Shown here one piece after another: positions 8,025 through 27,703 of a DNA stretch of 29,121 nt; positions within the stretch are counted from its first letter, which is position 1; each line of letters opens with the position of its first letter. This stretch comes from Rhodocyclaceae bacterium (GTDB taxonomy: Bacteria; Pseudomonadota; Gammaproteobacteria; Burkholderiales; Rhodocyclaceae): contig JAEUNN010000345.1 in the NCBI GenBank assembly GCA_016791085.1, positions 1-29,121 on the forward strand. The letters run 5' to 3'. Made by a program: the position numbers and the translations under genes. A model generated the notes under the pieces. That model was not told the origin of the DNA and searched no databases. It saw only the letters and a program-made list of their open reading frames with translations.

Positions 8025-8039
8025 GTCCTGGGCTCCGTT

Positions 8040-10040: not shown

Positions 10041-10165
10041 AACGATCACGATTGCCACGGCGGCATGCGCGGACACGACAGACCGGGATCCGGTTTCCGC
10101 GCACCGGCGGGGTTGCAGAGCCCCGGCCCGTGGGCATTTGCGGCAATGCCGCGATCGCTGTGAAT

Positions 10166-10184: not shown

Positions 10185-10322
10185 CGTGGCGCGGCCTACG
10201 CCAGGCAAGCGCAAATCATTGATACAGCTGATGTTTAGTGAAATGCCAGGGATTACGGCCGCGATGCTGCAGGGAGAATTTGCTAGAATTTGATCGCGTA
10301 CTTTATCCATTGATATAAAGCC

Positions 10323-12021: not shown

Positions 12022-12057
12022 ACGAAAAACGCGCCGGGGGGCGCGTTTTGCTGGAAC
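12022..12057 (+). terminator. Rho-independent terminator downstream of rtcR. It is bidirectional, with a T-run on the minus strand too, and would originally also have terminated tRNA-Ser.
   Basis: GAAAAACGCGCC-GGGG-GGCGCGTTTTGCTGG forms a perfect 10-bp GC-rich stem with a GGGG loop followed by TTTTG. On the minus strand the same stem is followed by GTTTTCT. It abuts the left copy of the 16-bp att repeat. Confidence 0.6.
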
Positions 12058-12073
12058 TTTGGCGGAGAGGGTG
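12058..12073. repeat. Left 16-bp direct repeat (att-like): TTTGGCGGAGAGGGTG, a duplicate of the tRNA-Ser 3' end
   Basis: Identical to 27609-27624. The right copy overlaps the last 14 nt of the intact tRNA-Ser at 27611-27703. Confidence 0.6.
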
Positions 12074-12206
12074 TCCGCGGAGATAGAACTTCCGGCAGTC
12101 CCACAAGGCATCTTTTCAACGCTGTAGCCCTTACCTGCCTTGACTTTGTTGGCTCATGTAGTGCCATAGGCTACCATCCAATCGCACCACCTTAGTTGGG
12201 TAGGAG

Positions 12207-12720
12207 GTGGGGAACAAGGAGATGCGAGCCATGCCAGGCAAAGCAAAGGAACTCTCGGCCCTGGAAGTCTCCCGGCTTACCTCACCAGGTTTGTACGCGG
12301 CGGGGGTCGTCCCCGGTCTGCAACTCCAAGTGACGGCCACCGGAGCACGGACCTGGGTACTGCGAGTATGGGTCGCCGGCAGGCGCCGGGACATGGGGCT
12401 GGGAGGTTATCCCGCCGTGACCCTGGCCATGGCCCGGGAGAAGGCCCGGGAAGCCCGCGACAAGATCGACAGAGGAATTGATCCGATAGGGGAGCGTCGG
12501 GCCGCTCAGAGCACTCTACGCGCCGCCCGTGGTGCTGAGATCACCTTCGAGAAGGCCGCCCAACAGTTCATTGAGGCCAAATCGGCAGAGTGGCGGAACA
12601 CCAAGCACCGGGGCCAATGGGAAGCCACCCTGTCCACCTATGCCTTCCCCGTGATCGGCACCCTCCAGGTTCGGGACGTGGCCCTGCCTCATGTGGTACG
12701 CATTCACAGCCGCGAGATGC
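12207..12720 (+). pseudogene. Truncated P4-family tyrosine integrase. Only the N-terminal ~170 aa (arm-binding DUF4102-like and SAM-like region) is present. The ORF reads on to 13073 through unrelated sequence.
   Basis: N-terminus ...ELSALEVSRLTSPGLYAAGVVPGLQLQVTATGARTWVLRVWVAGRRRDMGLGGYPAVTLAMAREKAREARDKIDRGIDPIGERR...FPVIGTLQVRDVALPHVV is typical of P4-like integrase N-terminal domains. After ~12720 the translation loses all integrase character. No R..HxxR..Y catalytic-domain sequence exists in any frame before the next gene at 13203, and only ~380 nt are available. Confidence 0.65.
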
Positions 12721-13202
12721 CGGCAAGACGCGGTCACCAGGTGACGGCGCTGCTGCTGGGCGAACGGCTAGTCGGGCTCTACAACGGGTCCACCGGGAAG
12801 CAGGTGAATTTTGTTCGAGCCGATCCGCCGCTGCCCTGGCGACGATGCGACGCAGCCGCCGTAGCGGCGCCTTCGGCTGCCAGCATCGCAGCATTCGCAT
12901 TCACAGCGTGGCCCGCCGTGCTGGTCAGCTTGCCGCTCGCGTTGTTATGCCCACCGTTGGTGGTGACGGCGCGCTTCGCCTGGCGCTGTCGCACGCGGGC
13001 ACAGGTTGACCGTGCACTAGACATCGTGAAAGGCCACGATGTCGTGCCACCGCAACTGCGCCGGGTGAAGTAGCGCGACACGGCAGGCAGCGCGCCGCTT
13101 CGCTCTTTGGCTCCCCGCCGTAATGCGCGGGAATGTCGAAGGAATTGTCAGCTCATACATTTCTCTGATACATTTCCTCCGGAATCGACATTTAGGGTAG
13201 CC

Positions 13203-16200
13203 ATGGCCGACAATCTTTTCGCCGTCTGCGAACCACGCGCCGATGTTCTTCAAGGGGCACTGAAGGAGAGCGACTTCGCTGCTGATCTCTCCCAGGTGCT
13301 CCGCGGCGACGCCCCGGACGAGTACAAGAAACCCGAACTGTTCTTCGCGAACACCTACCCGACCAAGGGCCTGAAGAATGTCCTCAAGCTGGTCGCACTG
13401 CGCGTCCTCGGGAGGCCCGAGCAGGTCGGCGCCATCTTCCGCCTCGATACGCAGTTCGGCGGTGGTAAGACGCACACCCTCATCGGCCTCGCACATGCCA
13501 TGCGTGGTCTCGCCGGCGTCCCGAACGCCGATGAGTTCCTGGAGCCGGCCCTTCGCCCGAGCGAACCGATTCGCATCGCCGCCTTCGACGGCGAAAATGC
13601 AGACCCCACCAATGGACGCAGGTTGAGCGACTCCACCCGCGCATTCAGCCCCTGGGGTGAGCTTGCGTTTGCGCTCGCTGGCGAGGCGGGCTACAGGCTC
13701 GTCGAGCAGAGCGACAAGGAAGGCATCGCGCCCGGCGCCGATACCCTGCGTGAACTCCTGGGCACCGACCCGGCGGTCATCCTCATCGACGAAATCGCGC
13801 CCTATCTGCGCAAAGTCGCGGGTCGGAATACGCAGCGAGCCGGCGAGCAACTGCTGGCCTTCATGACTTCGCTGATGAAGGCGGTCGAGAGCCTGCCCAA
13901 AGTCGCTCTCGTCTTCACCCTAGCCGTTGGCCGTGACGGCAAGGCAACCGATGCCTACAGCCGCGAGACGCAGGACATCGCCGCCTTCTTCGCCGAAGCC
14001 GAGAGCGTGGCTGCCCGCAAGGCCACGGTCATCGACCCCACCGAGGACGACGAAACCGTCAAGGTGGTCTGTCGTCGTCTGTTCACTCGCATCGACGAGT
14101 CCAAGGCCAAGCAGGTCGTTGCGGCCTACAAGGCACTCTGGGACGCGAACCGCGAATCACTGCCCACGCCGCCGGCACAAGACCGTCGCGTGGAGGAGTT
14201 CGAGGCTGGCTACCCGCTGCACCCGGAGTTGGTGAAGCTCCTGACCCAGAAGACCGGCACGCTCGGCAACTTCCAGCGCGTGCGCGGCATGCTGCGGCTG
14301 CTGGCGCGCACCGTGGCGCAACTTTGGCAAACCCGGCCCGCCGATGCCTACGCCATCCACACGCATCACATCGACCTTGGTTTCGAGCCCATCCGCCTGG
14401 AGCTGGTCACGCGTCTCAAGCAGGACATCTACGTGCCGGCCATCAAGGCCGAGATCGCCGGCGTGGACCAGAGCTCCGCGCTGGCGGAGCAACTCGATGC
14501 GGGCGCCTTCAAGGGACTGCCAACCTACGGGTCCTATGTCGCGCGCAGTGTCTTCATGCACACACTCGCCTTCAACGACACCCTGCGCGGCCTGAATGCC
14601 GATGAGCTTCGCTACGCCATCCTCGGGCCGGCGACCGACATCGCCTTCATCGACGACGCCCGCAAGCGCTTCATCACCGACTCGGCATACCTCGACGACA
14701 AACCCGGCGCGCCGCTGCGCTTCCTGGCCGAAGCCAACCTCACGCAAATCATCCGGCGTGAGGAGACCAACGTCGACCGCGAAGAGGCCCGGTCGCGCCT
14801 CAATGCCTACATCCGCGACCTGTTCGCCGGCCCCAATCTAAACCTCGTGCCCTTCGCCGCCGGCCCGCACGACATTCCTGATGACGACGGCAGCGGGCGT
14901 CCCTATCTCGCCATGTTGAGCCACGATGCGGTGCAGGTGGTCGGCGATGCCGTCCGCGTTGATACCCTGGTAGAGAAAATCTTTCTTCACCGCGGGACAG
15001 GCAACGACTGGCGGCACAACCGCAACAATCTGGTGTTTGTGGTCGCCGATGCTTCAGGTATCCCGACCATGAAGGCGCGCATGTTGCGCCATTTGGCGCT
15101 CGAGTCGCTGCGCGTGCCAGGCAAGCTCAAGGACCTCGCCGACTACCAGGTCGCCAAGCTGAGCGAGGAGTTCGAGGTCTCGAAGCAACGCCTCGCCCTG
15201 GCGGTCCAGCAGTGCTACCGCCACATCTTCTTCCCCTCGCGCAATCGCGTCGAAGGCGCAAGCTGTGACCTGGCCCACACGGTGGTGGACATTCAGACAG
15301 CCTCGGACCGGCCGGGCGACGGGCAGAAGCAGGTCGTTACGCAGCTCCAGAACGTCAACAAGCTGCGCCTGCCCACCGACCAGCCGGACTCGCCGGTCTA
15401 CGTGCGCGACCGCACGCCGCTCAAGAAGGGGCAAATCACCACCGCCGCACTGCGCAACGAGTTCCGGCAGGACGCCTCCCTGCCGATACTCGTCGGCGAC
15501 GACGTGTTCATCAAGGGCATCCGCCAGGGCATCGACCAAGGCGACTACGTCTACAAGTCCGGCGACCTGCTGCGCGGCAAGGGGGACCCTCACGCCGAAA
15601 TCAAGGTCGACGAGCAGTCCTTCGTATTCACGACGTCGTACGCCGAAGACCACGGTATCTGGCCTCGCCCTGCGCCCACGCCGGCGCCAGCGCCCGCCGG
15701 CGGTGGCGCCTCACCCACCGGCGGACCCGCCTCGGCGCCTTACGGAGCGCCTGCCCCCGGGCCGGCTCCAGCGGCGAATGAGCCAGGTGTCGTCCAGGCC
15801 GAAGACGTGCTCAAGGCCGCGCTGAACCGCGTCTTCGAACAGGCGCGCAACAACGGTGTGCTTACCCTGGGCTCGATGACCATTCGCCCTTTCGACAAGG
15901 GTGACGCCCTCAAACTGATTCCACTGGTCAAATCGGTTCCAAACACCACCAAGCGCATCGAGCTGGAAGCGTCCTTCGAGACGCCGAGCAAGTCGGAAGC
16001 GAGTGTGGCCTTCAAGGGAGACCTCGACGATGCCGCGCCGCTGAAGGACTACCTCGAACCCCAGTTCCGTGCTGCCAGTGACAGCGACGCGAGCGTCACT
16101 TTCATACTGCACTTCGACCCGCCGCTGGCCGTCCAGGGCGCCAGTGCCGACGGCCTCGTCCAGCGCTTGACGCGTCTCGTGTCGCCAGTCGCTCATGTGC

Positions 16201-16229
16201 TCGCCACTGTCGCCGACAAGAAATCCTGA
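13203..16229 (+). CDS. Large P-loop ATPase, DUF499/COG1483-like (BrxC/PglY-like AAA+ ATPase), ~1008 aa, with a Pro/Ala-rich linker before a small C-terminal domain
   Basis: Start is called at MADNLFAV (ATG 13203). The upstream in-frame extension from 13107 is AT-richer, promoter-like DNA. Walker A: RLDTQFGGGKTHTLIGL. Walker B: AVILIDEIAPYL. The >1000-aa size matches DUF499-family ATPases that accompany DUF1156 methylases. Low-complexity PAPTPAPAPAGGGASPTGGPASAPYGAPAPGPAPA linker near the C-terminus. Non-host codon usage. Confidence 0.75.
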   Translation: MADNLFAVCEPRADVLQGALKESDFAADLSQVLRGDAPDEYKKPELFFANTYPTKGLKNVLKLVALRVLGRPEQVGAIFRLDTQFGGGKTHTLIGLAHAMRGLAGVPNADEFLEPALRPSEPIRIAAFDGENADPTNGRRLSDSTRAFSPWGELAFALAGEAGYRLVEQSDKEGIAPGADTLRELLGTDPAVILIDEIAPYLRKVAGRNTQRAGEQLLAFMTSLMKAVESLPKVALVFTLAVGRDGKATDAYSRETQDIAAFFAEAESVAARKATVIDPTEDDETVKVVCRRLFTRIDESKAKQVVAAYKALWDANRESLPTPPAQDRRVEEFEAGYPLHPELVKLLTQKTGTLGNFQRVRGMLRLLARTVAQLWQTRPADAYAIHTHHIDLGFEPIRLELVTRLKQDIYVPAIKAEIAGVDQSSALAEQLDAGAFKGLPTYGSYVARSVFMHTLAFNDTLRGLNADELRYAILGPATDIAFIDDARKRFITDSAYLDDKPGAPLRFLAEANLTQIIRREETNVDREEARSRLNAYIRDLFAGPNLNLVPFAAGPHDIPDDDGSGRPYLAMLSHDAVQVVGDAVRVDTLVEKIFLHRGTGNDWRHNRNNLVFVVADASGIPTMKARMLRHLALESLRVPGKLKDLADYQVAKLSEEFEVSKQRLALAVQQCYRHIFFPSRNRVEGASCDLAHTVVDIQTASDRPGDGQKQVVTQLQNVNKLRLPTDQPDSPVYVRDRTPLKKGQITTAALRNEFRQDASLPILVGDDVFIKGIRQGIDQGDYVYKSGDLLRGKGDPHAEIKVDEQSFVFTTSYAEDHGIWPRPAPTPAPAPAGGGASPTGGPASAPYGAPAPGPAPAANEPGVVQAEDVLKAALNRVFEQARNNGVLTLGSMTIRPFDKGDALKLIPLVKSVPNTTKRIELEASFETPSKSEASVAFKGDLDDAAPLKDYLEPQFRAASDSDASVTFILHFDPPLAVQGASADGLVQRLTRLVSPVAHVLATVADKKS

Positions 16230-16240
16230 GGAACTAGGCC

Positions 16241-16729
16241 ATGACTACTCGACGCGCGCATGTGGTCGCACTCCCCCGCAAGGCCGCCTCCGCACTGCCG
16301 CACTACGAGCTCCGCGCCAAGCGGCAGCGGGGCTCCGACATGGCCCTCGAAATCTGGCAACTGCCGGCAAGTGCGACGCCTCACATCAAACAGCCCACCT
16401 ATGTGGCGGGGCTGCACGGCCGTAACCTCTCGCTGGTTGAGCATCGCTTGCTGCGCCGCCTGAAGGCCGTGCGCATCAACCTCAACGATTTGCCGGCCAT
16501 CGACGCCTTGCGAGTCCCCATCGACGAGGAACTCGCCATCAACCTTGGCCTGCTTTTCCGTTCCCTGGCGCCGATGCGTAACCGTGACCACATGGCCGCG
16601 GTGGCGGCCGGCATCGAGGTCATGACCAAGGAAGAGGCCGGTTACTGGCTCGGCATGGCAATGCATCGCAAATATCCGCGCCGCGTGCTGATGGCACTGC
16701 GCTTCCTGCTCATCGAACCGACCCACTGA
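16241..16729 (+). CDS. Small conserved hypothetical protein (162 aa) between the ATPase and the COG2865 gene. Positionally equivalent to the DUF3780-type partner of DUF499/DUF1156 systems.
   Basis: GAGGAA 6 nt upstream of ATG. 12-nt gap after the ATPase stop and 7-nt gap before the next gene. Island codon usage. The family assignment is by position only and is not verifiable from sequence here. Confidence 0.45.
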   Translation: MTTRRAHVVALPRKAASALPHYELRAKRQRGSDMALEIWQLPASATPHIKQPTYVAGLHGRNLSLVEHRLLRRLKAVRINLNDLPAIDALRVPIDEELAINLGLLFRSLAPMRNRDHMAAVAAGIEVMTKEEAGYWLGMAMHRKYPRRVLMALRFLLIEPTH

Positions 16730-16736
16730 AGGTGGC

Positions 16737-18482
16737 ATGCGCGAACTGACTGAGGTCCGTGCGCTGCTGACGCGTCTCGACGAGGTCGAAGCGGATGCAC
16801 TGGAATCGCAGGACCTCGACTTCAAGGAGTGGCCCGCCGATCACCGGCATGCCATCCGGCTGGCAGTCGACATGGCGGTCTGCATGGCCAATGGTGGCGG
16901 CGGCACGGTTGTTCTGGGGGTGCGCGACCGTGTGGTCGGGCGCTCCCAGGCGATTCTCGGCGTCCCTGCGACCGCGGACCCGCACCAACTGAAGCGTGAC
17001 ATCTACGAACGCACCGCGCCGAAGCTCACTCCCGAGGTTGTGGAGCTTGCCGTCCCGGAGGGCACCGGGCGCCTGTTCTTGATGCAGGTACATGGCGGCC
17101 TGCCACCGTACACCACTACCGCCGGCGCCGGCACCGTCCGGCGCGGCAAGGACTGTGTGCCCCTCACCGGTGACCTGCGCGACCGCCTGATGGTCGAGCG
17201 CGGCGACTCGGACGTAACTGCCGTTGCCGTCGCAGAGCCGGTCGAATCGCTGCTGTCGGCCGCGGCGCTCGAACGGCTGCGCGACTTGGCCCGCCAGGAG
17301 CAGGCGCCGGCAGACATGTTGCGCAAGTCCGACCTCGATCTGCTCGGCGCGCTCGAAGTTCTGCGTGATGGCCGGCTCACCAAGGCCGGTCTGCTCATCG
17401 CCGGCAATGCCGACGCCATTGCTCGTCACCTGCCTAACTACTCATGGACGCACGAGCGCATGAAGAGCGCCACTGCCTACGTGGACCGCGCCGACGGGCG
17501 CGATACGCGAGAGCTCGCTCTGCCACTCGCCCTGCAGGCGCTCGAATCGCGCATCAACGCCGACAACCCCATCACCACCGTCGAGCACGGCCTGCATCAC
17601 TTCGAATTCCGCGCGTACCCCACGGTGGCGCTGCGCGAGGCGCTGCTCAATGCCTTGTGCCACCTGGACTTGCGGCTCGCCAGCCCAGTGCTGGTCAAGC
17701 AGTTCCCGCGCAAGCTCGAAATCAGCAACCCCGGCGGCCTGGTGGGCGGCATCACGCCGGCCAACATCCTTCACCACCCGCCGCTTGCGCGCAACCCCTT
17801 GCTGGTGCATGCACTGTCGAAGCTGCGCTTGGTGAACCGCAGCAATCTCGGCATTGGCCGCATGTTCGAGGCGATGCTCATCGAGGGCAAGGAGCCGCCG
17901 CTCATCGTCGATGAGGAAAGCGCCGTTCGCGTCGTTTTCAAGCGGCAGGAGACTTCAGCGTCGTTCCGCGAGTTCATCGCCGACGAAGGCAAGGCCGGCC
18001 GGGTGCTGGACGTCGACCACCTGCTGGTGCTGAGCTACCTGCTAGGGCATGGCGAGATCGACACGGCTGCGGCCGCAGAACTCTGCCAGCGGCGTGATGC
18101 CGAGATGCGCGACATCCTCGACGAAATGGTGCAGGTCTACGACTACCTGGAACGCGGCGGCGCCGGGCGCGGCACTTGGTGGCGCCTGAAGCCCGCCTTG
18201 CACCGGCGGCTTGAAGGCGCCGGCCATGCCGAGCGGGACCAGCGCATCGACATCGACGTGGCCAAGACCCGTGTGCTCAACATGCTGAAGCAACGGCAGC
18301 AGCGCGGGCAGGCGGGTCTGTCGAACGCCGAGGTTCGCGAGGTGACCGGCTACACACGACAACAGGTCAACCGGCTGATACACGAACTGGAAGCAGAGTC
18401 TGTGCGCATGGTTGGGCACGGACGCGGTGCCCGATACGAATACGTCGGCTCAGTGCCGGCAAAGAAGACCAAGAGTTCATGA
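16737..18482 (+). CDS. COG2865-type protein: N-terminal AlbA_2/Schlafen-like putative DNA-binding domain + HATPase_c_4-like domain + C-terminal HTH (581 aa)
   Basis: AAGGTGG RBS. The architecture (N-terminal ~120-aa Schlafen-box-like region VRALLTRLDEVEADALESQDLDFKEW..., central region ...LREALLNALCHLDLRLASPVLVKQFPRKLEISNPGGLVGGIT..., C-terminal ...LSNAEVREVTGYTRQQVNRLIHELEAES... HTH) matches the defence-island-associated 'predicted transcriptional regulator with Schlafen-like domain' family. The stop overlaps the methylase start (ATGATGA). Confidence 0.7.
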   Translation: MRELTEVRALLTRLDEVEADALESQDLDFKEWPADHRHAIRLAVDMAVCMANGGGGTVVLGVRDRVVGRSQAILGVPATADPHQLKRDIYERTAPKLTPEVVELAVPEGTGRLFLMQVHGGLPPYTTTAGAGTVRRGKDCVPLTGDLRDRLMVERGDSDVTAVAVAEPVESLLSAAALERLRDLARQEQAPADMLRKSDLDLLGALEVLRDGRLTKAGLLIAGNADAIARHLPNYSWTHERMKSATAYVDRADGRDTRELALPLALQALESRINADNPITTVEHGLHHFEFRAYPTVALREALLNALCHLDLRLASPVLVKQFPRKLEISNPGGLVGGITPANILHHPPLARNPLLVHALSKLRLVNRSNLGIGRMFEAMLIEGKEPPLIVDEESAVRVVFKRQETSASFREFIADEGKAGRVLDVDHLLVLSYLLGHGEIDTAAAAELCQRRDAEMRDILDEMVQVYDYLERGGAGRGTWWRLKPALHRRLEGAGHAERDQRIDIDVAKTRVLNMLKQRQQRGQAGLSNAEVREVTGYTRQQVNRLIHELEAESVRMVGHGRGARYEYVGSVPAKKTKSS

Positions 18483-21457
18483 TGACCCGACGACTGATTG
18501 AAGATTGGCTGCCGATCGCGGCGCTGGGAGAAGAGAGCGTGCGCGAGCGGAGGTCTATGACCGCATTGCCGCCAACGTACTACCTCCATGTTTGGTGGGC
18601 ACGTCGCCCGCTGGTGGCCTCGCGTGCGGCGATCCTGGCCTCGTTGCTGCCGGGGGATGCCGACCAGGATAAGTTCCTGCACATGCTGGGGATACATGGG
18701 GACCCCGTTGCGGCGAAGAAACGAATTGCAAAGGCCACTCGTGACGGTGTTCGGCTTGGTGCGGATGCTTACGGCTATTCCCGAGCATTCTCATATTCGC
18801 CAACAGACGAGGAACGAAGCTGGTTCACCGATGAGGTGTCGCGCATCGTCGCGGTAGCACCTGCCGTACTTGATCCGACTGCCGGGGGCGGGAGCATTCC
18901 ATTTGAAAGCGCCAGGCTCGGCTTGACGACGATTGGCAACGACCTCAACCCGGTCGCATCACTCATTGGGCGTGCCACGATCGAACTGCCCATCAAGCAC
19001 GGTCAGGCGGTGCGGCTGGAAATGCTGCGCTTGGGCAAAGTTTTGGTGGAGTGTGTGCGGGAACGTCTTGCCTTCGCCTATCCCGACGAACCAGTAGCCG
19101 ATACGCGTCCAGACGGTTATCTCTGGGCACGCACTGTTCGCTGCCCCCACTGCGAGGGGCTGGTGCCCCTTTCCCCCAACTGGCGCCTGGCACCGGACGG
19201 CACCGGGGTGCGGCTCGAACCGCACAAGGGCAGCGGGCCAGGCGACGCCGCGCGCCACATCCGCTTCCAGATCGTCGCCAAGGTGCAGGAGCAGTCCGCG
19301 GGCACTGTCTCAGGCGGCGACGCCACCTGCCCCTTCGATGACTGCGGGCGGCTGATTTCCGGCGACCACATCCAGGCCGAGGCCCAGGCGGGACGGATGG
19401 GTGAGCAACTCTTTACCGTGGTGTTCAAGAAAAAGGTCATTACCGGCTACACCAAGGCTGGCAAGCCCAAGGAGAAATGGGTGCGCGGCTACCGCGCGCC
19501 CCGGCCCGAGGACGACGTTTCAGAACAGGTTGCGGCAACGCTGGCAGAGAAGCTGCCGGAGTGGGAGGCGCTGGACGTCATCCCTACGGAGAGAGTTCCC
19601 GAGGGACACAAAACTGGAAGCGGTCACGGAGACGGTACCGACCTGCCGCTCAAGCGCGGTGAGACGCACTGGATCCACATGTTCTCGCCCCGCCAGTTGC
19701 TCGGCCACGGTACCGCCGTCGAGGTGTTCCGGGAGCTAATCGAGGAGGAGAAGGCTGCAGAGCGCTGGAGCGAACTGACAGCGGCGGCGTTCTGCTACTT
19801 GTCCTTTTCGTTCGACAAACTGCGCGACTACAACTCACGCATGACGCGCTGGCACGTCAACCGCGAGGTCGTGGTCAATACTTTCGACCGTCACGATTTC
19901 GCTTTCAAGTGGTCCTACGCCGAGATGGCCCCGCTTATCGTCGGCCTGGGCTACGACTGGGCCATCGAGCAGACCGCCAAGTGCATCGGCGAATTGGTGG
20001 AACTGGTGCGACCGGACGCCAAGACCGCCGAGAGCGGCCAGGCCGGTTTCGATTTCGACCATCCGCGCAAAGGTTTTACGCCACCTCCGGTCACCCTTAG
20101 CTGCAAGTCCGGCGACAGCCTGGACCACATTGCCGATGCCAGCATCGACGCAGTCGTGATGGACCCACCCTACTACGATAACGTGATGTACGCCGAGTTG
20201 TCCGACTTCTTCTACGTCTGGCTCAAGCGCACCGCCGGCTATGTCTATCCCGAGTTGTTCCGCCGCCCGCTCACCGACAAGGAAAACGAGGCAGTCGCCA
20301 ACCCCGCCAAGTTCAAGGGTGAAAAGGGCGCCAAAGCGCTGGCCGGGCGCGACTACCAGCACCGCATGGCGGCCATCTTCACCGAGATGCGCCGGGTATT
20401 GAAGCCCGACGGCATCATGACCCTGATGTTCACCCACAAGGCCACCGGCGCCTGGGACGCGCTCACCACCGGCTTGATGGAAGCGGGTTTCGCGATCACG
20501 GCGTCCTGGCCGATCAACACCGAGGCCGAAGGCAGCCTGCATATCAAGGACAAATCGGCGGCCAACTCCACAGTGTTCCTGGTGTGCCGGCCACGCACGG
20601 ACAACGGAGACGACGTCCGCTATTGGGAAGACATCGAGCCCACGGTACGGCAGGCCGTCCGGAGCCGCATCGCGCAGTTCCAGCAGGGCGGCATCCGCGG
20701 CGTGGACCTATACCTCTCTTGCTTCGGTCCTGCGCTCGAAGCTTTCTCGCAACACTGGCCGCTCAAACGCGGTACGCCTCGACAGAACATCGAGCAGGCG
20801 CGCCGGCGCAAGCGGCAGAGCGAGATTTTCGAAGAGGAGTACGACCCCTACGCCGTCACCCCGGAGGACGCGCTGGAAGTGGCGCGCCGCGAGGTGAAGG
20901 ACTGGCGCCTGCATCAGATCACGCATGCACAGCGCAACGTCGAACTCGACAACCTGACCAGTTGGTTCGTGCTGGCCTGGGATGCCTTCGAAGCGCCCGT
21001 GTTTCCGTACGACGAAGCGAATCGGCTTGCGAAGGTGTGCGGCATCGATCTCGACCGCGATGTCGTGGGCAAGCTGGCGGAAAAGAAGGGTTCCGATCTC
21101 GTCCTTTGGGACAGCGTAACCCGCGCAGCGAAGGGGTCGCTGGGACTACCGGATGGGCGTGGCTCGATGATGGACGCGCTGCACCACCTCGCACGGGCAA
21201 CGCGGTCGGCGTCGCTCGAATCCGCCAATGAACTGCTCGCCAAGCACAGCCTGGCCAGCGAGCCGAGCTTTCTGGTTGCGCTGGAAGCGGTGCTCGAAGT
21301 GCTGCCGGTCGGCAAGGAGTGGAGCGGCCTCGATCTTCCCGATACGGCCCAGGGCGCCGGCGCCGACTTCGATGCGCTCGAGAAGCTGCGACGCCTGGCA
21401 TTGGCCGAGACGATTGCCGAACCCGAGCAGCTTAGGATTTGGCAAGAGGAGGTCTGA
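18479..21457 (+). CDS. DUF1156/COG1743-type adenine-specific DNA methyltransferase with Zn-ribbon (992 aa)
   Basis: N-terminal YYLHVWWARRPL (the WWARRP signature I associate with DUF1156). Motif I: VLDPTAGGGSIPFESARLG. Cys pairs RCPHCEG ... ATCPFDDCG form a Zn ribbon. Catalytic motif IV: AVVMDPPYYDN (DPPY, an amino-methyltransferase signature). The start ATG overlaps the upstream stop. Confidence 0.85.
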   Translation: MMTRRLIEDWLPIAALGEESVRERRSMTALPPTYYLHVWWARRPLVASRAAILASLLPGDADQDKFLHMLGIHGDPVAAKKRIAKATRDGVRLGADAYGYSRAFSYSPTDEERSWFTDEVSRIVAVAPAVLDPTAGGGSIPFESARLGLTTIGNDLNPVASLIGRATIELPIKHGQAVRLEMLRLGKVLVECVRERLAFAYPDEPVADTRPDGYLWARTVRCPHCEGLVPLSPNWRLAPDGTGVRLEPHKGSGPGDAARHIRFQIVAKVQEQSAGTVSGGDATCPFDDCGRLISGDHIQAEAQAGRMGEQLFTVVFKKKVITGYTKAGKPKEKWVRGYRAPRPEDDVSEQVAATLAEKLPEWEALDVIPTERVPEGHKTGSGHGDGTDLPLKRGETHWIHMFSPRQLLGHGTAVEVFRELIEEEKAAERWSELTAAAFCYLSFSFDKLRDYNSRMTRWHVNREVVVNTFDRHDFAFKWSYAEMAPLIVGLGYDWAIEQTAKCIGELVELVRPDAKTAESGQAGFDFDHPRKGFTPPPVTLSCKSGDSLDHIADASIDAVVMDPPYYDNVMYAELSDFFYVWLKRTAGYVYPELFRRPLTDKENEAVANPAKFKGEKGAKALAGRDYQHRMAAIFTEMRRVLKPDGIMTLMFTHKATGAWDALTTGLMEAGFAITASWPINTEAEGSLHIKDKSAANSTVFLVCRPRTDNGDDVRYWEDIEPTVRQAVRSRIAQFQQGGIRGVDLYLSCFGPALEAFSQHWPLKRGTPRQNIEQARRRKRQSEIFEEEYDPYAVTPEDALEVARREVKDWRLHQITHAQRNVELDNLTSWFVLAWDAFEAPVFPYDEANRLAKVCGIDLDRDVVGKLAEKKGSDLVLWDSVTRAAKGSLGLPDGRGSMMDALHHLARATRSASLESANELLAKHSLASEPSFLVALEAVLEVLPVGKEWSGLDLPDTAQGAGADFDALEKLRRLALAETIAEPEQLRIWQEEV

Positions 21458-21458
21458 C

Positions 21459-24400
21459 TTGCCACTGCTGACCGACTACGACTGGCGCAGCAAGTACGAC
21501 CCCGATGATGGAACACTCATCGAGCAGTTCTACCTGACCGCCCTTGCCTGCGCACAGCGCTACGACCGCACCACCGGCTATTTCAGCGCAACCGCGCTTG
21601 CTATCGCAGCACGCGGCATTGAAGGTCTCGTGCTCAATGCCGGCCGCATGCGCATGGTGGTGGGTTGCACGCTCGGGCAGCCGGAAGTGGACGCCATCGA
21701 GCAAGGCCAGTCGCTCAAGGACACCGTGGCCGGCATGCTGCTGGCCATGCCTCTGATTAGCACCAGCAAGGGCGATAAGGAGGCCCTTGAACTGATGGCC
21801 TGGATGGTTGCCAAGGGACACCTCGAAATCAAGGTGGCCGTGCCCTGCGACGAGAATCGCAACCCGGTCACGTCGAACGCCATCTTCCACGAGAAGACGG
21901 GTGTCATGGAGGACAAGACCGGTAACCGGCTTGCATTCGCCGGCAGCATCAACGAGACGGCCTACGGGTGGTTGCACAACTGGGAGAGCTTTCACGTCTT
22001 CTGCGACTGGGATGGCGGTACCAAGCATGTGGATGCCGAGGAGCGGACATTCGCGCAGTTGTGGGCCGACAAATCCAGGCGCGCAAAGGTGCTCGACGTG
22101 CCGGCGGCAGTACGGGAGGATCTGCTGCGCTTCATGCCGGCCGACGACCAGGAACCGGAACGGCTGAAACGCGCCCGAGCCGAGGGACCGGCGCCCGAGG
22201 TTACGAACACCGAGGGGACCAAGGCCACTCCCACCAGCCCGCGAGCCGGTGTCGACGAGACGCGCAAACAGGTCTGGAACACCATCTGGGGCGCCCCGCA
22301 ATTGCCCGGCGGTGAGCGCATCGCCGAGGTGACGAGTGCCATCACGCCGTGGCCCCACCAGGTGCGCGCGTTCGATCGCATGGTTGGCAACTGGCCACCC
22401 AGGCTGCTCATCGCCGACGAAGTAGGCCTGGGAAAGACCATCGAAGCGGGCATGCTGTTGCGTTACGCTTGGCTATCCGGCCGGGCGAAGCGCATCCTGG
22501 TGCTCGCCCCGAAGGCCGTGATGACGCAGTGGCAGATTGAGCTACGCGAGAAGTTCAACCTCAACTGGCCGATCTACGACGGCAAGGCGCTCAATTGGTA
22601 CCCGTCTCCGCTGATGAAGGGGCACCAGGAACGCGACGCTTCGCGGGACGATTGGCACCGAGAGCCTTTCGTCATCGCCTCGAGCCACTTGATGCGTCGG
22701 CGAGACCGGCAGCGCGAGCTGCTCGAGGTTGCCGAGCCGTGGGACCTGATCGTTCTGGACGAGGCGCATCACGCTCGGCGCAAGAGCCCTGGCGCGACCA
22801 AGGAAGGACCGCCCAACCTGCTGCTGCAATTGATGCAGAAGCTGAACGCGCGGACGCAAGGGCTGCTGCTGTTGACGGCGACGCCGATGCAGGTGCACCC
22901 GGTGGAAGTGTGGGACCTGCTCGTCCTGCTGGCCATGCCGGCTGCGTGGTCGCGGGGTGCCTTTCTGGAATTCTTTCGCAAGTCCGGCGACGGCAATCCG
23001 TCGCCCGAGGACTTCGAGATGCTGGCGGCGCTGTTCCGTGCAGCCGAGGCTGCGTTCGGCACGATGCCGATGGACGTCGCGGTGCGGCGCACGGCAGGCA
23101 AGAGCCGCCTCAAAGCGCAGAAGGTACTGCGTGCGCTGCGCGACACCGCTGCCACGCCGCGGCGGCAGCTCTCCGCCGAGGAACGGCGCAGTGCCGTGGC
23201 CATCATGCGTGCCCACACGCCAGTGGCTGGCCTGATTTCCCGCCATACGCGCGACCTGCTGCGCGAATACCACCGCCGCGGAATGATAGCCTCGCCTATC
23301 GCCAACCGGATGGTAGTCGACGAGTTCCTCGACATGACGAAGGTCGAGGAGGAGGTGTACGGGGCGCTGGAGGACTACATCTCCACGACCTATAACAACG
23401 CCGCCCAGGACAAGCGCAGCGCGGTTGGCTTCGTGATGACCACCTATCGCAAGCGCTTGGCATCAAGCTTCTACGCGCTGCGCAAGACGCTTGAGGAACG
23501 GCTCGGCGTAGTCGCCGGGCAGGCGAGCTTGCCGTTCGATCAGCTTCGAACCGCCGAAGACGCCGAGGACGACGAGGACGAGAGCGGCGACCAGGCCGAT
23601 GACGACGTCGTGGCGGCGCAGAAGCTTGTCGCCCTCAACCTGGAGGAGAGCGGCGAGATTGAGCGGTTGTTGGCCCAAGTTCGCCGTCTGCCGGTGGACA
23701 GCAAGGCCATCCGCCTGGCGGAGGTACTGCGCTCGCTGCAGGCTGGCAGCTTCCATGCGATGGACAACACGCTGCTGCCACCGTACCCGCAGGCCATCGT
23801 GTTCACGCAGTACACCGATACGCTCGACTACCTGCGCGACTACCTGAAGGGCGAGGGCTTCTCCATCCTGTGCTATTCAGGGCGCGGCGGTGAATGGTTG
23901 CTGCCGGACGGGCGGTGGAAGAACTTGTCACGTGAGGAGACCAAGAGGCGATTCCGTCGTGGCGATGCCCAGGTGCTGGTCTGTACCGACGCGGCGGCCG
24001 AAGGCCTGAACTTCCAGTTCTGCGGCGCGCTCATCAACTTCGATTCTCCATGGAACCCCATGCGGGTGGAGCAGCGCATCGGCCGTGTCGACCGGCTGGG
24101 CCAACGCTTCGAGCGCATCGCCGTCGTGAACCTGATGTACGAAGACACGGTTGAGACCGATGTGTACCGGGCTCTGCGCACGCGCATCAACTTATTCACC
24201 GCCGTGGTCGGGCGGCTGCAGCCGATTCTTTCGACGATGCCGCAGCGCATCGCCGCCGTGGCATTAACCGGCCCGGACGGGCGTCAGCAGGCAAGAGCGA
24301 ATCTCATCTCCCACCTTCAACATGAAGCGGCGGCACCTGCACCGGAGTCGTTCGATATCGACGACGCCATCGACGCGGCGCTCGAGATGGGCGACAGGCC

Positions 24401-24680
24401 TCCCGCGCCGTACGACCTGGAAGACCTCGGCCGCCTGCTCGACCACCAGAAGCTGCTACCGCCGGGATGCGAAGCCCAGCGGGCCAACTCGAAGGACGTG
24501 TTCTGGATTCAGCCCGGCGCGCCCAAGGTGGCGGTGACCACAGATCCCGAGTTCTTCGAAGAGCATGCTGACTCGCTGGAGTTCTGGACGCCGGGAAGCC
24601 CAGCGTTCCCCGGCCCAAGCCTCTCGGAAGGCTTCACGGCCGAACCGGTGCGCTTGAGCGAACTGCTGCGCTCTTCATGA
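21459..24680 (+). CDS. PLD-family nuclease domain fused to SNF2/SWI2-family helicase (~1073 aa), TTG start
   Basis: The ORF tracker starts at 21228, overlapping the methylase by 230 nt. In-frame TTG at 21459, with GAGG 7 nt upstream and 1 nt after the methylase TGA, is the likely start (LPLLTDYDW...). The N-terminal region has a PLD HKD-type motif FHEKTGVMEDKTGNRLAFAGSIN (H-x-K-x4-D ... GSxN). SNF2 helicase motifs: I LLIADEVGLGKTIEAG, II LIVLDEAHHARR, V-VI VLVCTDAAAEGLNFQFCGALINFDSPWNPMRVEQRIGRVDRLGQ. Confidence 0.85.
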   Translation: MPLLTDYDWRSKYDPDDGTLIEQFYLTALACAQRYDRTTGYFSATALAIAARGIEGLVLNAGRMRMVVGCTLGQPEVDAIEQGQSLKDTVAGMLLAMPLISTSKGDKEALELMAWMVAKGHLEIKVAVPCDENRNPVTSNAIFHEKTGVMEDKTGNRLAFAGSINETAYGWLHNWESFHVFCDWDGGTKHVDAEERTFAQLWADKSRRAKVLDVPAAVREDLLRFMPADDQEPERLKRARAEGPAPEVTNTEGTKATPTSPRAGVDETRKQVWNTIWGAPQLPGGERIAEVTSAITPWPHQVRAFDRMVGNWPPRLLIADEVGLGKTIEAGMLLRYAWLSGRAKRILVLAPKAVMTQWQIELREKFNLNWPIYDGKALNWYPSPLMKGHQERDASRDDWHREPFVIASSHLMRRRDRQRELLEVAEPWDLIVLDEAHHARRKSPGATKEGPPNLLLQLMQKLNARTQGLLLLTATPMQVHPVEVWDLLVLLAMPAAWSRGAFLEFFRKSGDGNPSPEDFEMLAALFRAAEAAFGTMPMDVAVRRTAGKSRLKAQKVLRALRDTAATPRRQLSAEERRSAVAIMRAHTPVAGLISRHTRDLLREYHRRGMIASPIANRMVVDEFLDMTKVEEEVYGALEDYISTTYNNAAQDKRSAVGFVMTTYRKRLASSFYALRKTLEERLGVVAGQASLPFDQLRTAEDAEDDEDESGDQADDDVVAAQKLVALNLEESGEIERLLAQVRRLPVDSKAIRLAEVLRSLQAGSFHAMDNTLLPPYPQAIVFTQYTDTLDYLRDYLKGEGFSILCYSGRGGEWLLPDGRWKNLSREETKRRFRRGDAQVLVCTDAAAEGLNFQFCGALINFDSPWNPMRVEQRIGRVDRLGQRFERIAVVNLMYEDTVETDVYRALRTRINLFTAVVGRLQPILSTMPQRIAAVALTGPDGRQQARANLISHLQHEAAAPAPESFDIDDAIDAALEMGDRPPAPYDLEDLGRLLDHQKLLPPGCEAQRANSKDVFWIQPGAPKVAVTTDPEFFEEHADSLEFWTPGSPAFPGPSLSEGFTAEPVRLSELLRSS

Positions 24681-24696
24681 CTCGGGCCGACGAGCA

Positions 24697-26079
24697 ATGA
24701 CAACCTCTGACGACAAGAAGCTCACCGACCGGCAACTGCTCGGCAGCCAGGGCACCAGTCTCATTGATCTGGTCGTATCAAGAATGGGTTTTGTCTGGCG
24801 ATCGACGGCACAGCACGACGCGGGTATCGACGGCGAGATTGAAGTCAGGGACCCGTCGACTGGCCGCATGACGGGCCTGCTCATCAAGGTGCAGAGCAAG
24901 GCGGTCTCGACCTTCGCTAACGAGACCGACGAGAGTTTCGACTACTGGCCGGAAGAGCGCGACATGCGCTACTGGCTGGGCCACAACCTGCCCGTCATCT
25001 TGGTCGTGTCCCAACCTGCGACAGGAAGCATCTACTGGCTCCCGGTGCGGGAGCAGACCTCCTCAGCAAACTCTAAGCGCTTCCACTTCCTCAAGGCCAG
25101 CGACCGCCTTGACGAGGGAGCCCGGGGGCGACTGATTCAGTTGGCGCAGAGCGCTGGCCAGGGCGCGGTGGCTCCGGCGCTGGCGAAGCACGAGCAGTTA
25201 ATCAGCAATCTGTTGCCGGTCGTCCGGCTGCCCGATCGCCTGTACCTGGCGGAAACGAAATTTCGGAGTGGCAAGGAGATTGGCGACCTGCTGAGGGAAA
25301 TGAACCAGCGGGCCGACACTGAAACCACGACGGGCGCAAGGACCGTTCGTCCCGAGCTACGCGTCGAATTCGTGCTCAAGAACAAGCGCATTCTGACTGT
25401 TCGCGACCTCACCGACCCGCGCTATGAGTTCCTGTGCGACCGTGGAACCGTGGAGGACTTCCCCACATCCGAGTGGGCCCTCGCAGCGGACGCGGAAAAG
25501 CAACGTGACTTCGTGCACCTCCTGAACCAGTGCCTCCGAGAGATGCTTCGCGGCATGCCGGAGCATCTGTGGTTCGACCGCGGTGCGAGGTGCTTCTTCT
25601 TCCCTCCGTCACGCGACCGGAAGCCTTACGACTACGCGTACCGCGGCGCCAAGAAGGAGACGGTCCGAGAGGTGTTCAAGGAGCGCATCAACAAGAGCAA
25701 AGGCCACGTCATGGGCTACCGACATAGCGCGATGATTGCCCAATTCTACCGGTACGACGGGTCGTGGTACCTCGAAGTGACACCTACCTACTTCTTCACC
25801 AAGGACGGCGCCCAGAAGAGCAAGTGGCACGAAGAATGGCTGAAGGGCATCAAGGAACTTGAGAAGAACCAGGCAGTGCGCGGCCAGCTTCTCATGTGGG
25901 CCGACCTACTGGTGGAGGTCCCGGACCTCCTTAGTGATGGGTATCCGTTCCTGAGGTTCGGTCCGCCGACTACGTTCTCGACCGAGCGCGGGATCGACGA
26001 TACGGCATGGGCGGCCTCTGACTCGAGCGGAAAATCGGGGATTCCCGATGGCACCGCTCCACTGTTCGAGCTGCTCTGA
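24697..26079 (+). CDS. DUF4365 (DREN, PD-(D/E)xK-like nuclease) domain protein, 460 aa. Candidate DREN-APAZ partner of a short prokaryotic Argonaute (SPARDA-like).
   Basis: N-terminus LGSQGTSLIDLVVSRMGFVWRSTAQHDAGIDGEIEVRD...GLLIKVQSKAV...HNLPVILVV carries the D-GID-x-E ... VQSK pattern of DUF4365/restriction-endonuclease-like fold. The ~300 residues after the nuclease domain are compatible in size with an APAZ domain; APAZ identity is not verifiable by eye. The stop overlaps the downstream start (TGATG). Confidence 0.55.
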   Translation: MTTSDDKKLTDRQLLGSQGTSLIDLVVSRMGFVWRSTAQHDAGIDGEIEVRDPSTGRMTGLLIKVQSKAVSTFANETDESFDYWPEERDMRYWLGHNLPVILVVSQPATGSIYWLPVREQTSSANSKRFHFLKASDRLDEGARGRLIQLAQSAGQGAVAPALAKHEQLISNLLPVVRLPDRLYLAETKFRSGKEIGDLLREMNQRADTETTTGARTVRPELRVEFVLKNKRILTVRDLTDPRYEFLCDRGTVEDFPTSEWALAADAEKQRDFVHLLNQCLREMLRGMPEHLWFDRGARCFFFPPSRDRKPYDYAYRGAKKETVREVFKERINKSKGHVMGYRHSAMIAQFYRYDGSWYLEVTPTYFFTKDGAQKSKWHEEWLKGIKELEKNQAVRGQLLMWADLLVEVPDLLSDGYPFLRFGPPTTFSTERGIDDTAWAASDSSGKSGIPDGTAPLFELL

Positions 26080-27527
26080 TGAAGTTTGAATACCTCGACG
26101 AGCCGGAACTGGAGTTTGGCGGCCTGCGTCGTCACATCGACATTCGGCAAGGGCTGACACTCTTTGGCCCTCTGGATGCGGACGCCGAACGACCCCGTCG
26201 GATTCGACTTGGTTTGGTTGGCACGCAGCAGACCGTGGACGGTATCGTGCAGTGGTTGGAACGCTGCCGCGGCGGCGTCGCAGCGAAGGCGAGCCGACAA
26301 CCAAATCTGTTTCCTGCGTTCCCTGGGTTTGGTGCCGAGTCGGCTTTCAGGACCGAATTCGACATCGACCAGTCGCTCGTGCGCGCCTTGTCGAGTCGCG
26401 AAGTCGCCCGAATTGCCGCGCTGCCCCACTACACAGCGCTGGCTGAGGCGGAGCAGGTTCTCGAGGGGGAGGTCCAGGCCATCAGCGAGAAAGCCCGTCC
26501 CGACGTGGTTATCGTGGCGTTGCCTGCCGAACTGGTCGCTTTGGAGGATGAAGAAGAGGTTGAGGCGACCGCGGAGTTCGCATCCGAGAAGGACCAGTTG
26601 GACTACGAGACCAACATCGATCTGCGCCATATGCTCAAGGCCAAGGTGATGCGGTTCAATCAGCCGATTCAGCTAGTGTTGCCGCAGACCTATGATGAGC
26701 GAGCCAAGGGCAAGACAAGCAAGAAATCCGGCAAGCGGAGGCTTCAGGACGAAGCGACGCGCGCCTGGAACTTCCATACGGCGCTCTGCTACAAAGCCAA
26801 CCATCGTCTGTGGCGGATTGTCCGAAACGCTGCCGATCTGCACACCTGCTTCGTTGGCATTAGCTTCTATCGCTCGCTGGATCAAGCCAACCTGATGACA
26901 AGCATGGCGCAGGTCTACGACGAGCGCGGCGAGGGTGTGATCGTTCGAGGCAAAGCGGTTGAGCTGTCGAAGGACGACCGTCAGCCCCATCTCTCGAATG
27001 ACGATGCGTGCGCATTGCTGGCATCAGCGTTGAGCGAGTACCGACGCGAGCACAAGCATCCACCGGCACGCGTCGTACTGCACAAGAGCTCTTCCTACAA
27101 CCAGTCGGAACTCGATGGATTCAACGCGGCCGTCGACTCGCAAGGGCTGGATTCGGCCGATTTCCTCGTGGTGTCCAAGTCCTTCAGCCGCCTATACCGC
27201 GATGGTCGGTATCCACCGCTGAGGGGCACGATGCTGACGCTTGATGACAGAACGCACTTGCTGTACACGCGGGGCAGCGTGCGCTACTACGCCACGTATC
27301 CAGGCATGTACGTGCCGAGACCATTGAAGTTCCAGATGGCACAAGCCGACGGTAGCGCTCGCCAGGCAGCGGAGGAACTGCTTGCCCTGACCAAGCTCAA
27401 TTGGAACAACACCCAATTCGACGGTGGCCTGCCCATCACGATGCGCGTGGCGCACGAGGTTGGGAAGGTGTTGAAGTATGTGCCGGATGGCGGCGTCGTG
27501 CAGCCGCGGTACAGCTTCTACATGTGA
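26079..27527 (+). CDS. Candidate short prokaryotic Argonaute (MID-PIWI, catalytically inactive), 482 aa
   Basis: Size, translational coupling to an upstream DUF4365-containing ~460-aa protein, and PIWI-like C-terminal features (VVLHKSSSY...FLVVSKSFSRLYRDG, an RDG-type motif) fit SPARDA/SPARTA-type operons. Assignment is by architecture and is not verified by alignment. Confidence 0.45.
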   Translation: MKFEYLDEPELEFGGLRRHIDIRQGLTLFGPLDADAERPRRIRLGLVGTQQTVDGIVQWLERCRGGVAAKASRQPNLFPAFPGFGAESAFRTEFDIDQSLVRALSSREVARIAALPHYTALAEAEQVLEGEVQAISEKARPDVVIVALPAELVALEDEEEVEATAEFASEKDQLDYETNIDLRHMLKAKVMRFNQPIQLVLPQTYDERAKGKTSKKSGKRRLQDEATRAWNFHTALCYKANHRLWRIVRNAADLHTCFVGISFYRSLDQANLMTSMAQVYDERGEGVIVRGKAVELSKDDRQPHLSNDDACALLASALSEYRREHKHPPARVVLHKSSSYNQSELDGFNAAVDSQGLDSADFLVVSKSFSRLYRDGRYPPLRGTMLTLDDRTHLLYTRGSVRYYATYPGMYVPRPLKFQMAQADGSARQAAEELLALTKLNWNNTQFDGGLPITMRVAHEVGKVLKYVPDGGVVQPRYSFYM

Positions 27528-27565
27528 CAACCAACCACTTCCCGGATAGTGGGCTTGGTAGTGGC

Positions 27566-27597
27566 GTAAATAAAAAACGCGGCCTGAATGCCGCGTG
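27566..27597 (-). terminator. Rho-independent terminator for tRNA-Ser (minus strand). It may also terminate the island operon on the plus strand, where the T-run is weak.
   Basis: Stem ACGCGGC/GCCGCGT (27577-27583 / 27590-27596) with loop CTGAAT. On the minus strand it is followed by TTTTTTATTTAC. It lies just inside the island's right end, immediately 3' of the tRNA. Confidence 0.55.
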
Positions 27598-27608
27598 TTT
27601 ACTAGGTG

Positions 27609-27624
27609 TTTGGCGGAGAGGGTG
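27609..27624. repeat. Right 16-bp direct repeat (att-like) TTTGGCGGAGAGGGTG, overlapping the tRNA-Ser 3' end
   Basis: Perfect copy of 12058-12073. Includes the CCA-end and 3' acceptor strand of the tRNA. Confidence 0.6.
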
Positions 27625-27703
27625 GGATTCGAACCCACGTGCCGGTGTTACCCGACCATCCGATTTCGAGTCGGCGCCGTTATGACCGCTTCGGTACCTC
27701 TCC
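27611..27703 (-). tRNA. tRNA-Ser (anticodon CGA), type II with long variable arm, encoded CCA
   Basis: Minus strand: GGAGAGG-TA-CCGAAGCGGTCATAACGG-CGCCGA-CUCGAAA-UCGGA-long variable arm-CGTGGGTTCGAATCCCACC-CCTCTCC-G-CCA. 7-bp acceptor stem. Anticodon loop CU-CGA-AA. T-loop TTCGAAT. ~93 nt. Confidence 0.9.

Follow-up and report, generated by a model that had tools for sequence, protein, structure and literature searches.

The DNA analyzed here, referred to in the following as the window, is the 29,121-nt contig JAEUNN010000345.1 of a Rhodocyclaceae bacterium (assembly GCA_016791085.1). It carries two adjacent genes on the + strand that encode a nuclease-domain protein of 460 amino acids and a short prokaryotic Argonaute (pAgo) of 482 amino acids, and that resemble the two genes of the SPARDA defense systems. 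A first-pass annotation, made from the letters alone, had proposed such a pair from open reading frames (ORFs) at 24697–26079 and 26079–27527, and both the coordinates and the protein lengths were exact. The junction between the genes reads ...CTC TGA TG AAG...; the TGA stop codon (26077–26079) and the ATG start codon (26079–26081) have one nucleotide in common, so that the TGATG overlap described in the annotation was confirmed. Antisense ORFs across the pair (for example, 25788–26630 on the − strand) were set aside as artifacts of GC-rich DNA.

The two proteins and their relatives

The 460-aa protein has a single Pfam domain, the DUF4365 (DREN) nuclease domain, which matched residues 18–150 with an E-value of 2.2e-26 and a score of 93 bits against a cutoff of 24.3. 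The block by which the annotation had recognized this domain (DAGIDGEIEVRD...LIKVQSK) falls within the match and holds the catalytic residues. The PADLOC model Aga_REase-PNTD1-PNTD2 matched residues 6–446 (E = 3.8e-145). When the protein was searched against all PDB chains, it matched the DREN-APAZ chains of EaeSPARDA (9qbp_A, E = 1.6e-53), XauSPARDA (9qbq_A, 6e-48) and NbaSPARDA (9jsb_D, 1.6e-42). Identity to the Xau DREN-APAZ protein is ≈31%, and to the closest genomic homolog, from an Azonexus locus (L001), 66%.

An APAZ region had been predicted for the C-terminal part of this protein, and the matches to solved DREN-APAZ chains and to HNH-, SIR2- and TIR-APAZ proteins bear this out. An APAZ-only construct of XauSPARDA (9qbl_A) matched residues 155–445 (E = 1.1e-21), and the match to the HNH-APAZ chain of SPARHA (9om4_A, E = 1.6e-4) was confined to residues 154–405. 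The PADLOC SIR2-APAZ and TIR-APAZ models matched with their APAZ part only, over residues 160–405 (E = 8e-24) and 163–373, respectively. As these last matches lie only within residues 160–405, no TIR or SIR2 NADase domain was found in the effector; nor was an HNH domain, 9om4_A matching only the APAZ region and the N-terminus being DUF4365.

The 482-aa protein matched the PADLOC model pAgo_I over residues 1–482 (E = 1e-171). Among the PDB chains, the SPARDA pAgos of Eae, Xau and Nba (9qbp_B, 9qbl_B and 9jsb_A) matched end to end with E-values from 1e-107 to 1e-103, followed at lower significance by the pAgos of SPARHA (6e-77) and SPARTA (≈1e-37) and by a long pAgo (2.5e-5). The PADLOC and PDB-chain E-values of the two proteins are so low that chance ORFs in GC-rich DNA can be ruled out. 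The length of 482 aa and the end-to-end alignment with SPARDA chains of 482–485 aa correspond to MID and PIWI domains only, without N or PAZ. Identity to the Xau pAgo is ≈39%.

Profile searches gave no meaningful Pfam or NCBIfam match for the window pAgo, Pfam Piwi included. The Pfam Piwi threshold lies above most of this family, only 7 of 42 members reaching it, and PADLOC, PDB and fold searches were therefore used. An AlphaFold2 model built from a 42-sequence alignment (pLDDT 81.4, pTM 0.84) was compared with the PDB by Foldseek. The 21 best matches were all SPARDA pAgo chains, with template modeling (TM) scores of 0.84–0.91, and SPARHA and SPARTA came next. The MID/PIWI homology that the annotation had claimed is thus found by PADLOC, in the PDB chains and in the predicted fold, and its SPARDA call is supported by the matches of both proteins to the Nba, Xau and Eae systems.

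More than 3,400 proteins in the databases matched the pAgo at E ≤ 1e-20. The closest homologs (98%, 90% and 89% identical) are metagenomic, and among named sources, Ralstonia pickettii has the closest (75%). We collected 80 related genomic loci, the nearest from Azonexus (79%), Cupriavidus (75%) and Paraburkholderia (71%). In 79 of the 80, the gene directly 5′ of the pAgo gene encodes a DREN-APAZ protein, and the stop and start codons overlap in 66 of 79, consistent with the earlier observation that gene sizes, order and coupling are as in SPARDA. At one locus, from Calothrix (L068, 8000–11383), the pAgo match starts at residue 31, an unrelated ORF lies upstream and no DREN-APAZ gene is present; it is probably a disrupted SPARDA.

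Similarity between the window DNA and that of its nearest relatives is limited to the two coding sequences (24711–27527), and no recurrent third gene was found in the related loci. Two candidates for such a gene, a DUF4058 gene following the pAgo gene in L017 and a 268-aa ORF in L001, each occurred at a single locus, are absent from the window and were rejected. Since the similarity ends at the borders of the coding sequences and a third gene is lacking, SPARDA moves as a two-gene cassette. An identical copy was present on an independent metagenomic contig (L082), in the order hmaB-hmaA-DUF4365-pAgo.

Catalytic, guide-binding and interface residues

Residues were mapped in alignments of 64 DREN-APAZ and 79 pAgo sequences from the related loci. 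The Xau sequences were rebuilt from printed alignments, with a numbering that recovers all the residues that the XauSPARDA paper names. In the DREN domain, all 64 sequences have D45, E49 and Q66, and 62 of them have K68. The catalytic residues of the Nba DREN domain, D41, Q60 and K62, which were mutated in the NbaSPARDA work, correspond to D45, Q66 and K68 of the window protein. Xau E37, whose replacement by alanine (E37A) inactivates XauSPARDA, aligns with D41 of the window protein, in a column where 40 of the sequences have E and 24 have D.

The last 40 residues of the DREN-APAZ protein have a net charge of −4. In the window and in its close relatives L001 and L004, an acidic, low-complexity tail is followed by a conserved LFELL ending (nt 26062–26076 in the window), which is absent from the Xau protein. 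By analogy with the C-terminal tail of Xau (residues 414–444), this acidic tail may be autoinhibitory, filling the nucleic-acid groove.

In the MID domain of the pAgo, K187, Q198, Q223, N231 and K239 are invariant among the 79 sequences, while 22 of them have R at position 183 and the other 57 have H. R183, K187 and K239 correspond to Nba R183, K187 and K240, which bind the 5′-phosphate of the guide. Xau N179, Q222 and N230 read the 5′-AU of the guide, and the two readers of the second base (g2U), Q222 and N230, are Q223 and N231 in the window pAgo. The pocket for the first base (g1) is different: where Nba and Xau have N/F/W (N181/F182/W201 in Nba, holding g1A), the window pAgo has D181/L182/L201 (nt 26619–26683). 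This pocket occurs in 21 residue combinations among the 79 sequences, and the combination D-L-R-L is found only in the betaproteobacterial clade of the window. Judging from the alignment, such variability suggests that 5′-nucleotide preferences vary within SPARDA.

The filament-interface residues E282 and R283 (Xau E281 and R282) are kept in 74 and 77 of the 79 pAgo sequences, respectively, a match at the level of sequence only. The sensor loop at residues 299–305 reads DDRQPHL, and its Xau counterpart RGRHPYL.

To place the PIWI tetrad, the TtAgo sequence was taken from pTT27, and D478, E512, D546 and D660 were confirmed there before alignment. The short-pAgo family profile aligned with TtAgo residues 516–641 (E = 9e-10) and placed TtAgo D546 (LLRDGR) opposite S337 (LHKSS), in a column where all 79 sequences have S or T. 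On this alignment, the PIWI domain lacks the full DEDX tetrad, the aspartate at the D546 position being replaced by serine. By motif only, S262 would stand opposite TtAgo D478. When the TtAgo PIWI region was added to the family alignment with MAFFT, it slipped by one beta-strand at D478, and no unambiguous placement resulted at D660. The LYRDG motif, which the annotation had listed as a PIWI feature, did not hold up: it aligns with a non-catalytic TtAgo strand, RVYPV (RLYRDG opposite GRVYPV). It was also rejected as a catalytic RDG, as the D375 column is variable and the catalytic RDG of TtAgo falls on KSS; by this alignment, the resemblance is coincidental.

The island, the Hma operon and methylation-based neighbors

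The features of the region are listed in Table 1. The pair is the last cargo of an island of ≈15.5 kb (12074–27608) that lies between 16-bp direct repeats at a tRNA-Ser gene. The integrase has no catalytic domain, and the island is therefore probably fixed in place and its present-day mobility doubtful. None of 19 related loci that were inspected for an adjacent tRNA gene had one, so that integration at tRNA-Ser is specific to the island of the window. A GC-rich hairpin precedes each copy of the repeat, at 12026–12049 for the distal and at 27577–27596 for the proximal copy. The one downstream of the pAgo gene is probably a terminator for tRNA-Ser and possibly terminates the operon as well, acting bidirectionally. 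Beyond one border of the island lie ppc, a chemoreceptor gene, rtcA, a Band_7 gene and rtcR; beyond the other lies serS. The rtc locus (5754–11930) comprises rtcA (5754–6782, −), the Band_7/SPFH gene (8527–9879, −) and rtcR (10323–11930, +); the ORFs around the expected rtcB position, 6082–8232 (−) and 6540–8633 (+), had no Pfam match.

Table 1. Features of the SPARDA pair and of the island that carries it (positions in the window)
Feature	Position	Strand	Basis and remarks
DREN-APAZ effector gene, upstream member of the pair	24697–26079	+	ORF, ATG start, 460 aa
DREN (DUF4365) PD-(D/E)xK nuclease domain, residues 18–150	24748–25146	+	Pfam PF14280
DREN active-site block D41, D45, E49, Q66, K68	24817–24900	+	Family alignment
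APAZ domain, residues ≈155–445	25159–26031	+	Matches to APAZ-only 9qbl_A and SPARHA 9om4_A
DREN-APAZ C-terminal tail, ending in LFELL	26032–26076	+	Charge count, clade-conserved ending
TGATG stop/start overlap, translational coupling	26077–26081	+	Sequence; overlaps common in related loci
Short pAgo gene, MID and PIWI only	26079–27527	+	ORF, ATG start, 482 aa
MID guide 5′-end pocket R183, K187, Q198, K239 (RK type), g1 pocket, g2 readers	26625–26795	+	Alignment
PIWI domain, predicted to be catalytically inactive, residues ≈250–482	26826–27524	+	Boundary by analogy with NbaAgo
Distal att-like direct repeat TTTGGCGGAGAGGGTG	12058–12073		Perfect 16-bp copy of 27609–27624; adjoins truncated integrase gene
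Truncated P4-type integrase	12207–13073	+	Pfam: only Arm-DNA-bind_3 and Phage_int_M; no catalytic domain
HmaC-like DUF499 ATPase	13107–16229	+	Pfam; PADLOC HmaC, E = 6e-94
DUF7680 protein	16241–16729	+	Pfam
Schlafen/AlbA_2-HATPase_c_4-MarR-like protein	16737–18482	+	Pfam
HmaB DUF1156 methyltransferase	18479–21457	+	Pfam; PADLOC HmaB, E = 2e-71
HmaA PLD/SNF2 helicase (SNF2, Helicase_C)	21459–24680	+	Pfam; PADLOC HmaA, E = 8e-57
GC-rich hairpin between pAgo stop codon and tRNA-Ser 3′ end	27577–27596		7-pair stem, 6 GC pairs, T-run on −
tRNA-Ser(CGA), island integration site	27611–27703	−	ARAGORN; 3′ end carries proximal repeat 27609–27624

By its domain content, the module upstream of the pair (13107–24680) is of the Hma type, with HmaC, HmaB and HmaA. 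All its genes are on the + strand, with at most 12 nt between consecutive genes. The HmaA protein scored higher against the PADLOC helicase models BrxHI, PbeA, PLD_Helicase and DrmD than against the HmaA model. For hmaA, the start at ATG 21228 given by mechanical ORF calling, with a 230-nt overlap with hmaB, was rejected in favor of TTG 21459, which is preceded by a GAGGAGG ribosome-binding site, lies 1 nt past the hmaB stop codon and yields 1073 aa, as called on L082; TTG 21459 is almost certainly the real start.

The DUF7680 gene is found together with Hma at five other loci; its product may be a core Hma component. The Schlafen/AlbA_2 gene is absent from the other Hma loci and is probably embedded cargo. 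Residues 291–340 of its product matched the PADLOC SIR2-APAZ models (E = 5e-7) outside their APAZ part; this 50-residue stretch is probably a Schlafen-like or winged helix-turn-helix element that the proteins share, comparable to the fusions of SIR2, Schlafen and APAZ noted by Ryazansky et al.

The annotation had placed the pair directly downstream of a methylation module, and the DREN-APAZ gene indeed follows hmaA on the same strand after a gap of 16 nt. No + strand terminator was predicted within the Hma–SPARDA cluster by a terminator scan. A promoter scan found sites no more numerous than in shuffled sequence and is therefore silent on an internal promoter. The suggestion that the two systems may form one operon and a layered defense is a reasonable one.

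SPARDA pairs were found next to methylation-based operons at other loci as well. Hma-like genes flank the pair in L016, where they are convergent, and in L075. In L017 (4440–19861), L029, L032 and L073, which come from two cyanobacteria, one Verrucomicrobiales metagenome-assembled genome and one uncultured bacterium, the pair is embedded in an Hma-like operon, with hmaC/DUF7680 on one side and hmaB/hmaA on the other; L017 also has a 23S_rRNA_IVP/bAvd-like gene and the DUF4058 gene alongside the pair. Hma-adjacent or embedded SPARDA thus occurs in five or more separate lineages of pAgo, the nearest relatives of which have no Hma. In the Azonexus locus L001 (2440–11449) and in L011 (Geobacter), SPARDA lies directly 3′ of hsdM-hsdS-hsdR, and in L002 (Cupriavidus) it is likewise 3′ of this kind of operon, at a distance of 2 kb. 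The pair of L009 comes after an MmeI-type methyltransferase/helicase cluster, and that of three Poribacteria loci (L041, L057 and L071) lies between hsdM and hsdR. Altogether, an HsdM-, HmaB- or MmeI-type methyltransferase module was present within 10 kb in at least 18 of the 80 loci, a lower bound from tblastn.

Defense systems are often embedded, in the same orientation, in Hma, Type I restriction-modification (R-M), BREX and DISARM operons (Payne et al., bioRxiv 10.1101/2024.01.29.577857), the main text of which does not name pAgo cargo. Methyltransferases, HsdS, helicases and Schlafen/AlbA_2 proteins have also been reported to be enriched near pAgo genes. The association of SPARDA with methylation-based operons is real and of a known type of pattern; mechanistic coupling does not follow from it. 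One could imagine that Hma, Type I R-M and MmeI-type operons preferentially capture SPARDA, in their interior or at their 3′ end, because the layers cooperate: obligatory co-transcription would set the dosage, the restriction or helicase-nuclease machinery would expose single-stranded DNA (ssDNA) targets, and SPARDA would be a fail-safe against invaders that evade methylation. We regard this idea as rather doubtful.

Interpretation and comparison with known systems

Because of their architecture, their full-length homology to characterized SPARDAs and the fact that all residue classes probed by experiment in those systems are conserved, the two genes very likely constitute an intact SPARDA of clade S2B, an RNA-guided system of the abortive-infection type (function by homology) that is carried as island cargo and probably co-transcribed with Hma. 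Guide- and target-dependent collateral nuclease activity, with cell death or immunity, is known for the Nba, Xau and Eae systems. By analogy with these, translational coupling would yield near-equal amounts of the two proteins, which would form a DREN-APAZ:pAgo heterodimer. The MID pocket (R183, K187, Q198 and K239) would hold small guide RNAs that stem from abundant transcripts, binding their 5′-phosphate. Once a guide had paired with the complementary DNA of a high-copy invader, such as a plasmid or phage, the acidic C-terminal tail of DREN-APAZ would be displaced and the PIWI sensor loops pushed, and the complexes would polymerize into filaments via E282 and R283. DREN tetramers would then cut DNA without sequence preference (in Nba also ssDNA and RNA), the PIWI domain itself being non-cutting, and the cell would die or stop growing. 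In such a scheme, Hma would be a methylation-based first layer of defense and SPARDA an abortive-infection second layer.

Several points weigh against this interpretation. Complex formation, guide type, target type, collateral cleavage and protection are predicted from homology at 31–39% identity. In the DREN active site, D41 stands where Xau has E37, a variant that is common in nature (24 of 64) and whose function is predicted. Three of the four tetrad positions have no reliable alignment, and only the D546 column could be placed. As the g1 pocket differs from those of Nba and Xau, a preference for 5′-AU guides cannot be transferred with confidence. Finally, co-transcription of Hma and SPARDA is plausible but is judged only from spacing and simple consensus scans.

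The difference in the g1 pocket could mean that the pair is a SPARDA-type machine with another guide specification, using a different 5′ nucleotide or DNA guides, and hence with another spectrum of triggers. The presence of D181/L182/L201 instead of N/F/W would fit this, as would the high variability of the pocket (21 combinations in 79 sequences) and the restriction of D-L-R-L to the betaproteobacterial clade. However, the g2U readers Q223 and N231 and the 5′-phosphate pocket are invariant, and D181 could still accept a hydrogen bond from the N6 of adenine, so we consider a different guide specification possible but unlikely. The notion that the pair is a decaying or inactive relic on an immobilized island has very little to commend it. 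The island integrase is truncated and the pAgo has no Pfam or NCBIfam match of its own, but neither ORF is shortened, each aligning with solved proteins over its entire length, no catalytic or binding residue has been lost, and full-length homologs exist that are near-identical or 98–75% identical. The truly disrupted Calothrix locus, with its truncated pAgo match and without an effector gene, looks different.

The position of the pair might also be taken to mean that SPARDA, beyond sharing a transcript with Hma, is functionally a part of the Hma operon, such as a backup effector that relies on products of the Hma helicase/nuclease or is under Hma regulation. This would agree with the 16-nt gap on the same strand without a predicted terminator, with the fact that at least five pAgo lineages have SPARDA adjacent to or embedded in Hma-like operons, and with its appearance next to or within Type I R-M or MmeI-type modules elsewhere (at least 18 of 80 loci within 10 kb). 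On the other hand, no such methyltransferase module was found within 10 kb in the other 62 of the 80 related loci, and the Nba, Xau and Eae systems function in E. coli as two-gene systems without Hma. Moreover, the cassette moves alone, DNA homology stopping at the borders of its two coding sequences, and the embedding of unrelated systems in Hma, R-M, BREX and DISARM operons is general and implies no mechanistic coupling. Functional integration therefore seems improbable, and an autonomous two-gene SPARDA is the reading that we prefer.

In terms of what it adds, the pair is one divergent (31–39% identity), apparently intact and previously unstudied member of a family that runs into thousands and in which the structures of three systems have already been solved; conceptually it changes nothing, and current defense-annotation tools would flag it automatically. 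Only two threads are mildly novel: the g1 pocket is a variant one, and methylation-based defense operons have captured SPARDA repeatedly. The betaproteobacterial clade with the D/L/L pocket is a candidate for studying guide 5′-end preference, which matters to nucleic-acid detection tools based on SPARDA. The recurrent placement of SPARDA by methylation-based operons offers a test case for whether embedded defense systems cooperate or are merely co-regulated.

The closest known systems are the solved SPARDAs (NbaSPARDA, 9jsb/9jsz/9vx1; XauSPARDA, 9qbq/9qcc; EaeSPARDA, 9qbp), which share with the window pair the gene order, the overlap, the DUF4365 and APAZ domains and the MID-PIWI pAgo. The likeness extends to the DREN site, the RK-type pocket, the g2 readers, the sensor loop, the filament residues, the inactive PIWI and the fold (TM 0.84–0.91). 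The pair differs from XauSPARDA in overall sequence (identity of ≈39% for the pAgo and ≈31% for DREN-APAZ), in D41 for E37, in the D/L/L of the g1 pocket and in the DDRQPHL loop. Unlike the SPARDAs that have been studied, it follows the last gene of an Hma operon, within an island at tRNA-Ser, and it is known here from its sequence.

Among the other short pAgo systems, SPARHA (AcaSPARHA, 9om4) is a filament-forming nuclease system of clade S2B with a related pAgo (E = 6e-77, TM 0.81) and an APAZ region that matches residues 154–405; its effector nuclease is HNH, whereas that of the window is DUF4365/DREN. SPARTA and SPARSA likewise have a short, inactive pAgo with an upstream APAZ partner, RNA-guided sensing of DNA and activation driven by oligomerization, and their pAgo folds resemble the window model at TM ≈0.74–0.84 with 21–23% identity. 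Their effectors, however, are NADases (TIR or SIR2) that deplete NAD+, whereas the effector of the window is a predicted nuclease. Long active pAgos such as TtAgo have a PIWI core homologous to that of the window pAgo family, but TtAgo has 685 aa with N and PAZ domains and the catalytic D546, while the window pAgo has 482 aa, a serine at that position, and is predicted to act via its partner nuclease. As for the setting, the Hma operons with embedded cassettes described by Payne et al. (bioRxiv 10.1101/2024.01.29.577857) resemble the window in having HmaC, HmaB and HmaA on one strand, with DUF7680 and Schlafen/AlbA_2 genes between them and co-oriented defense genes. In the embedded pattern, the cargo sits between the hma genes, whereas the SPARDA pair of the window is appended after the last of them.

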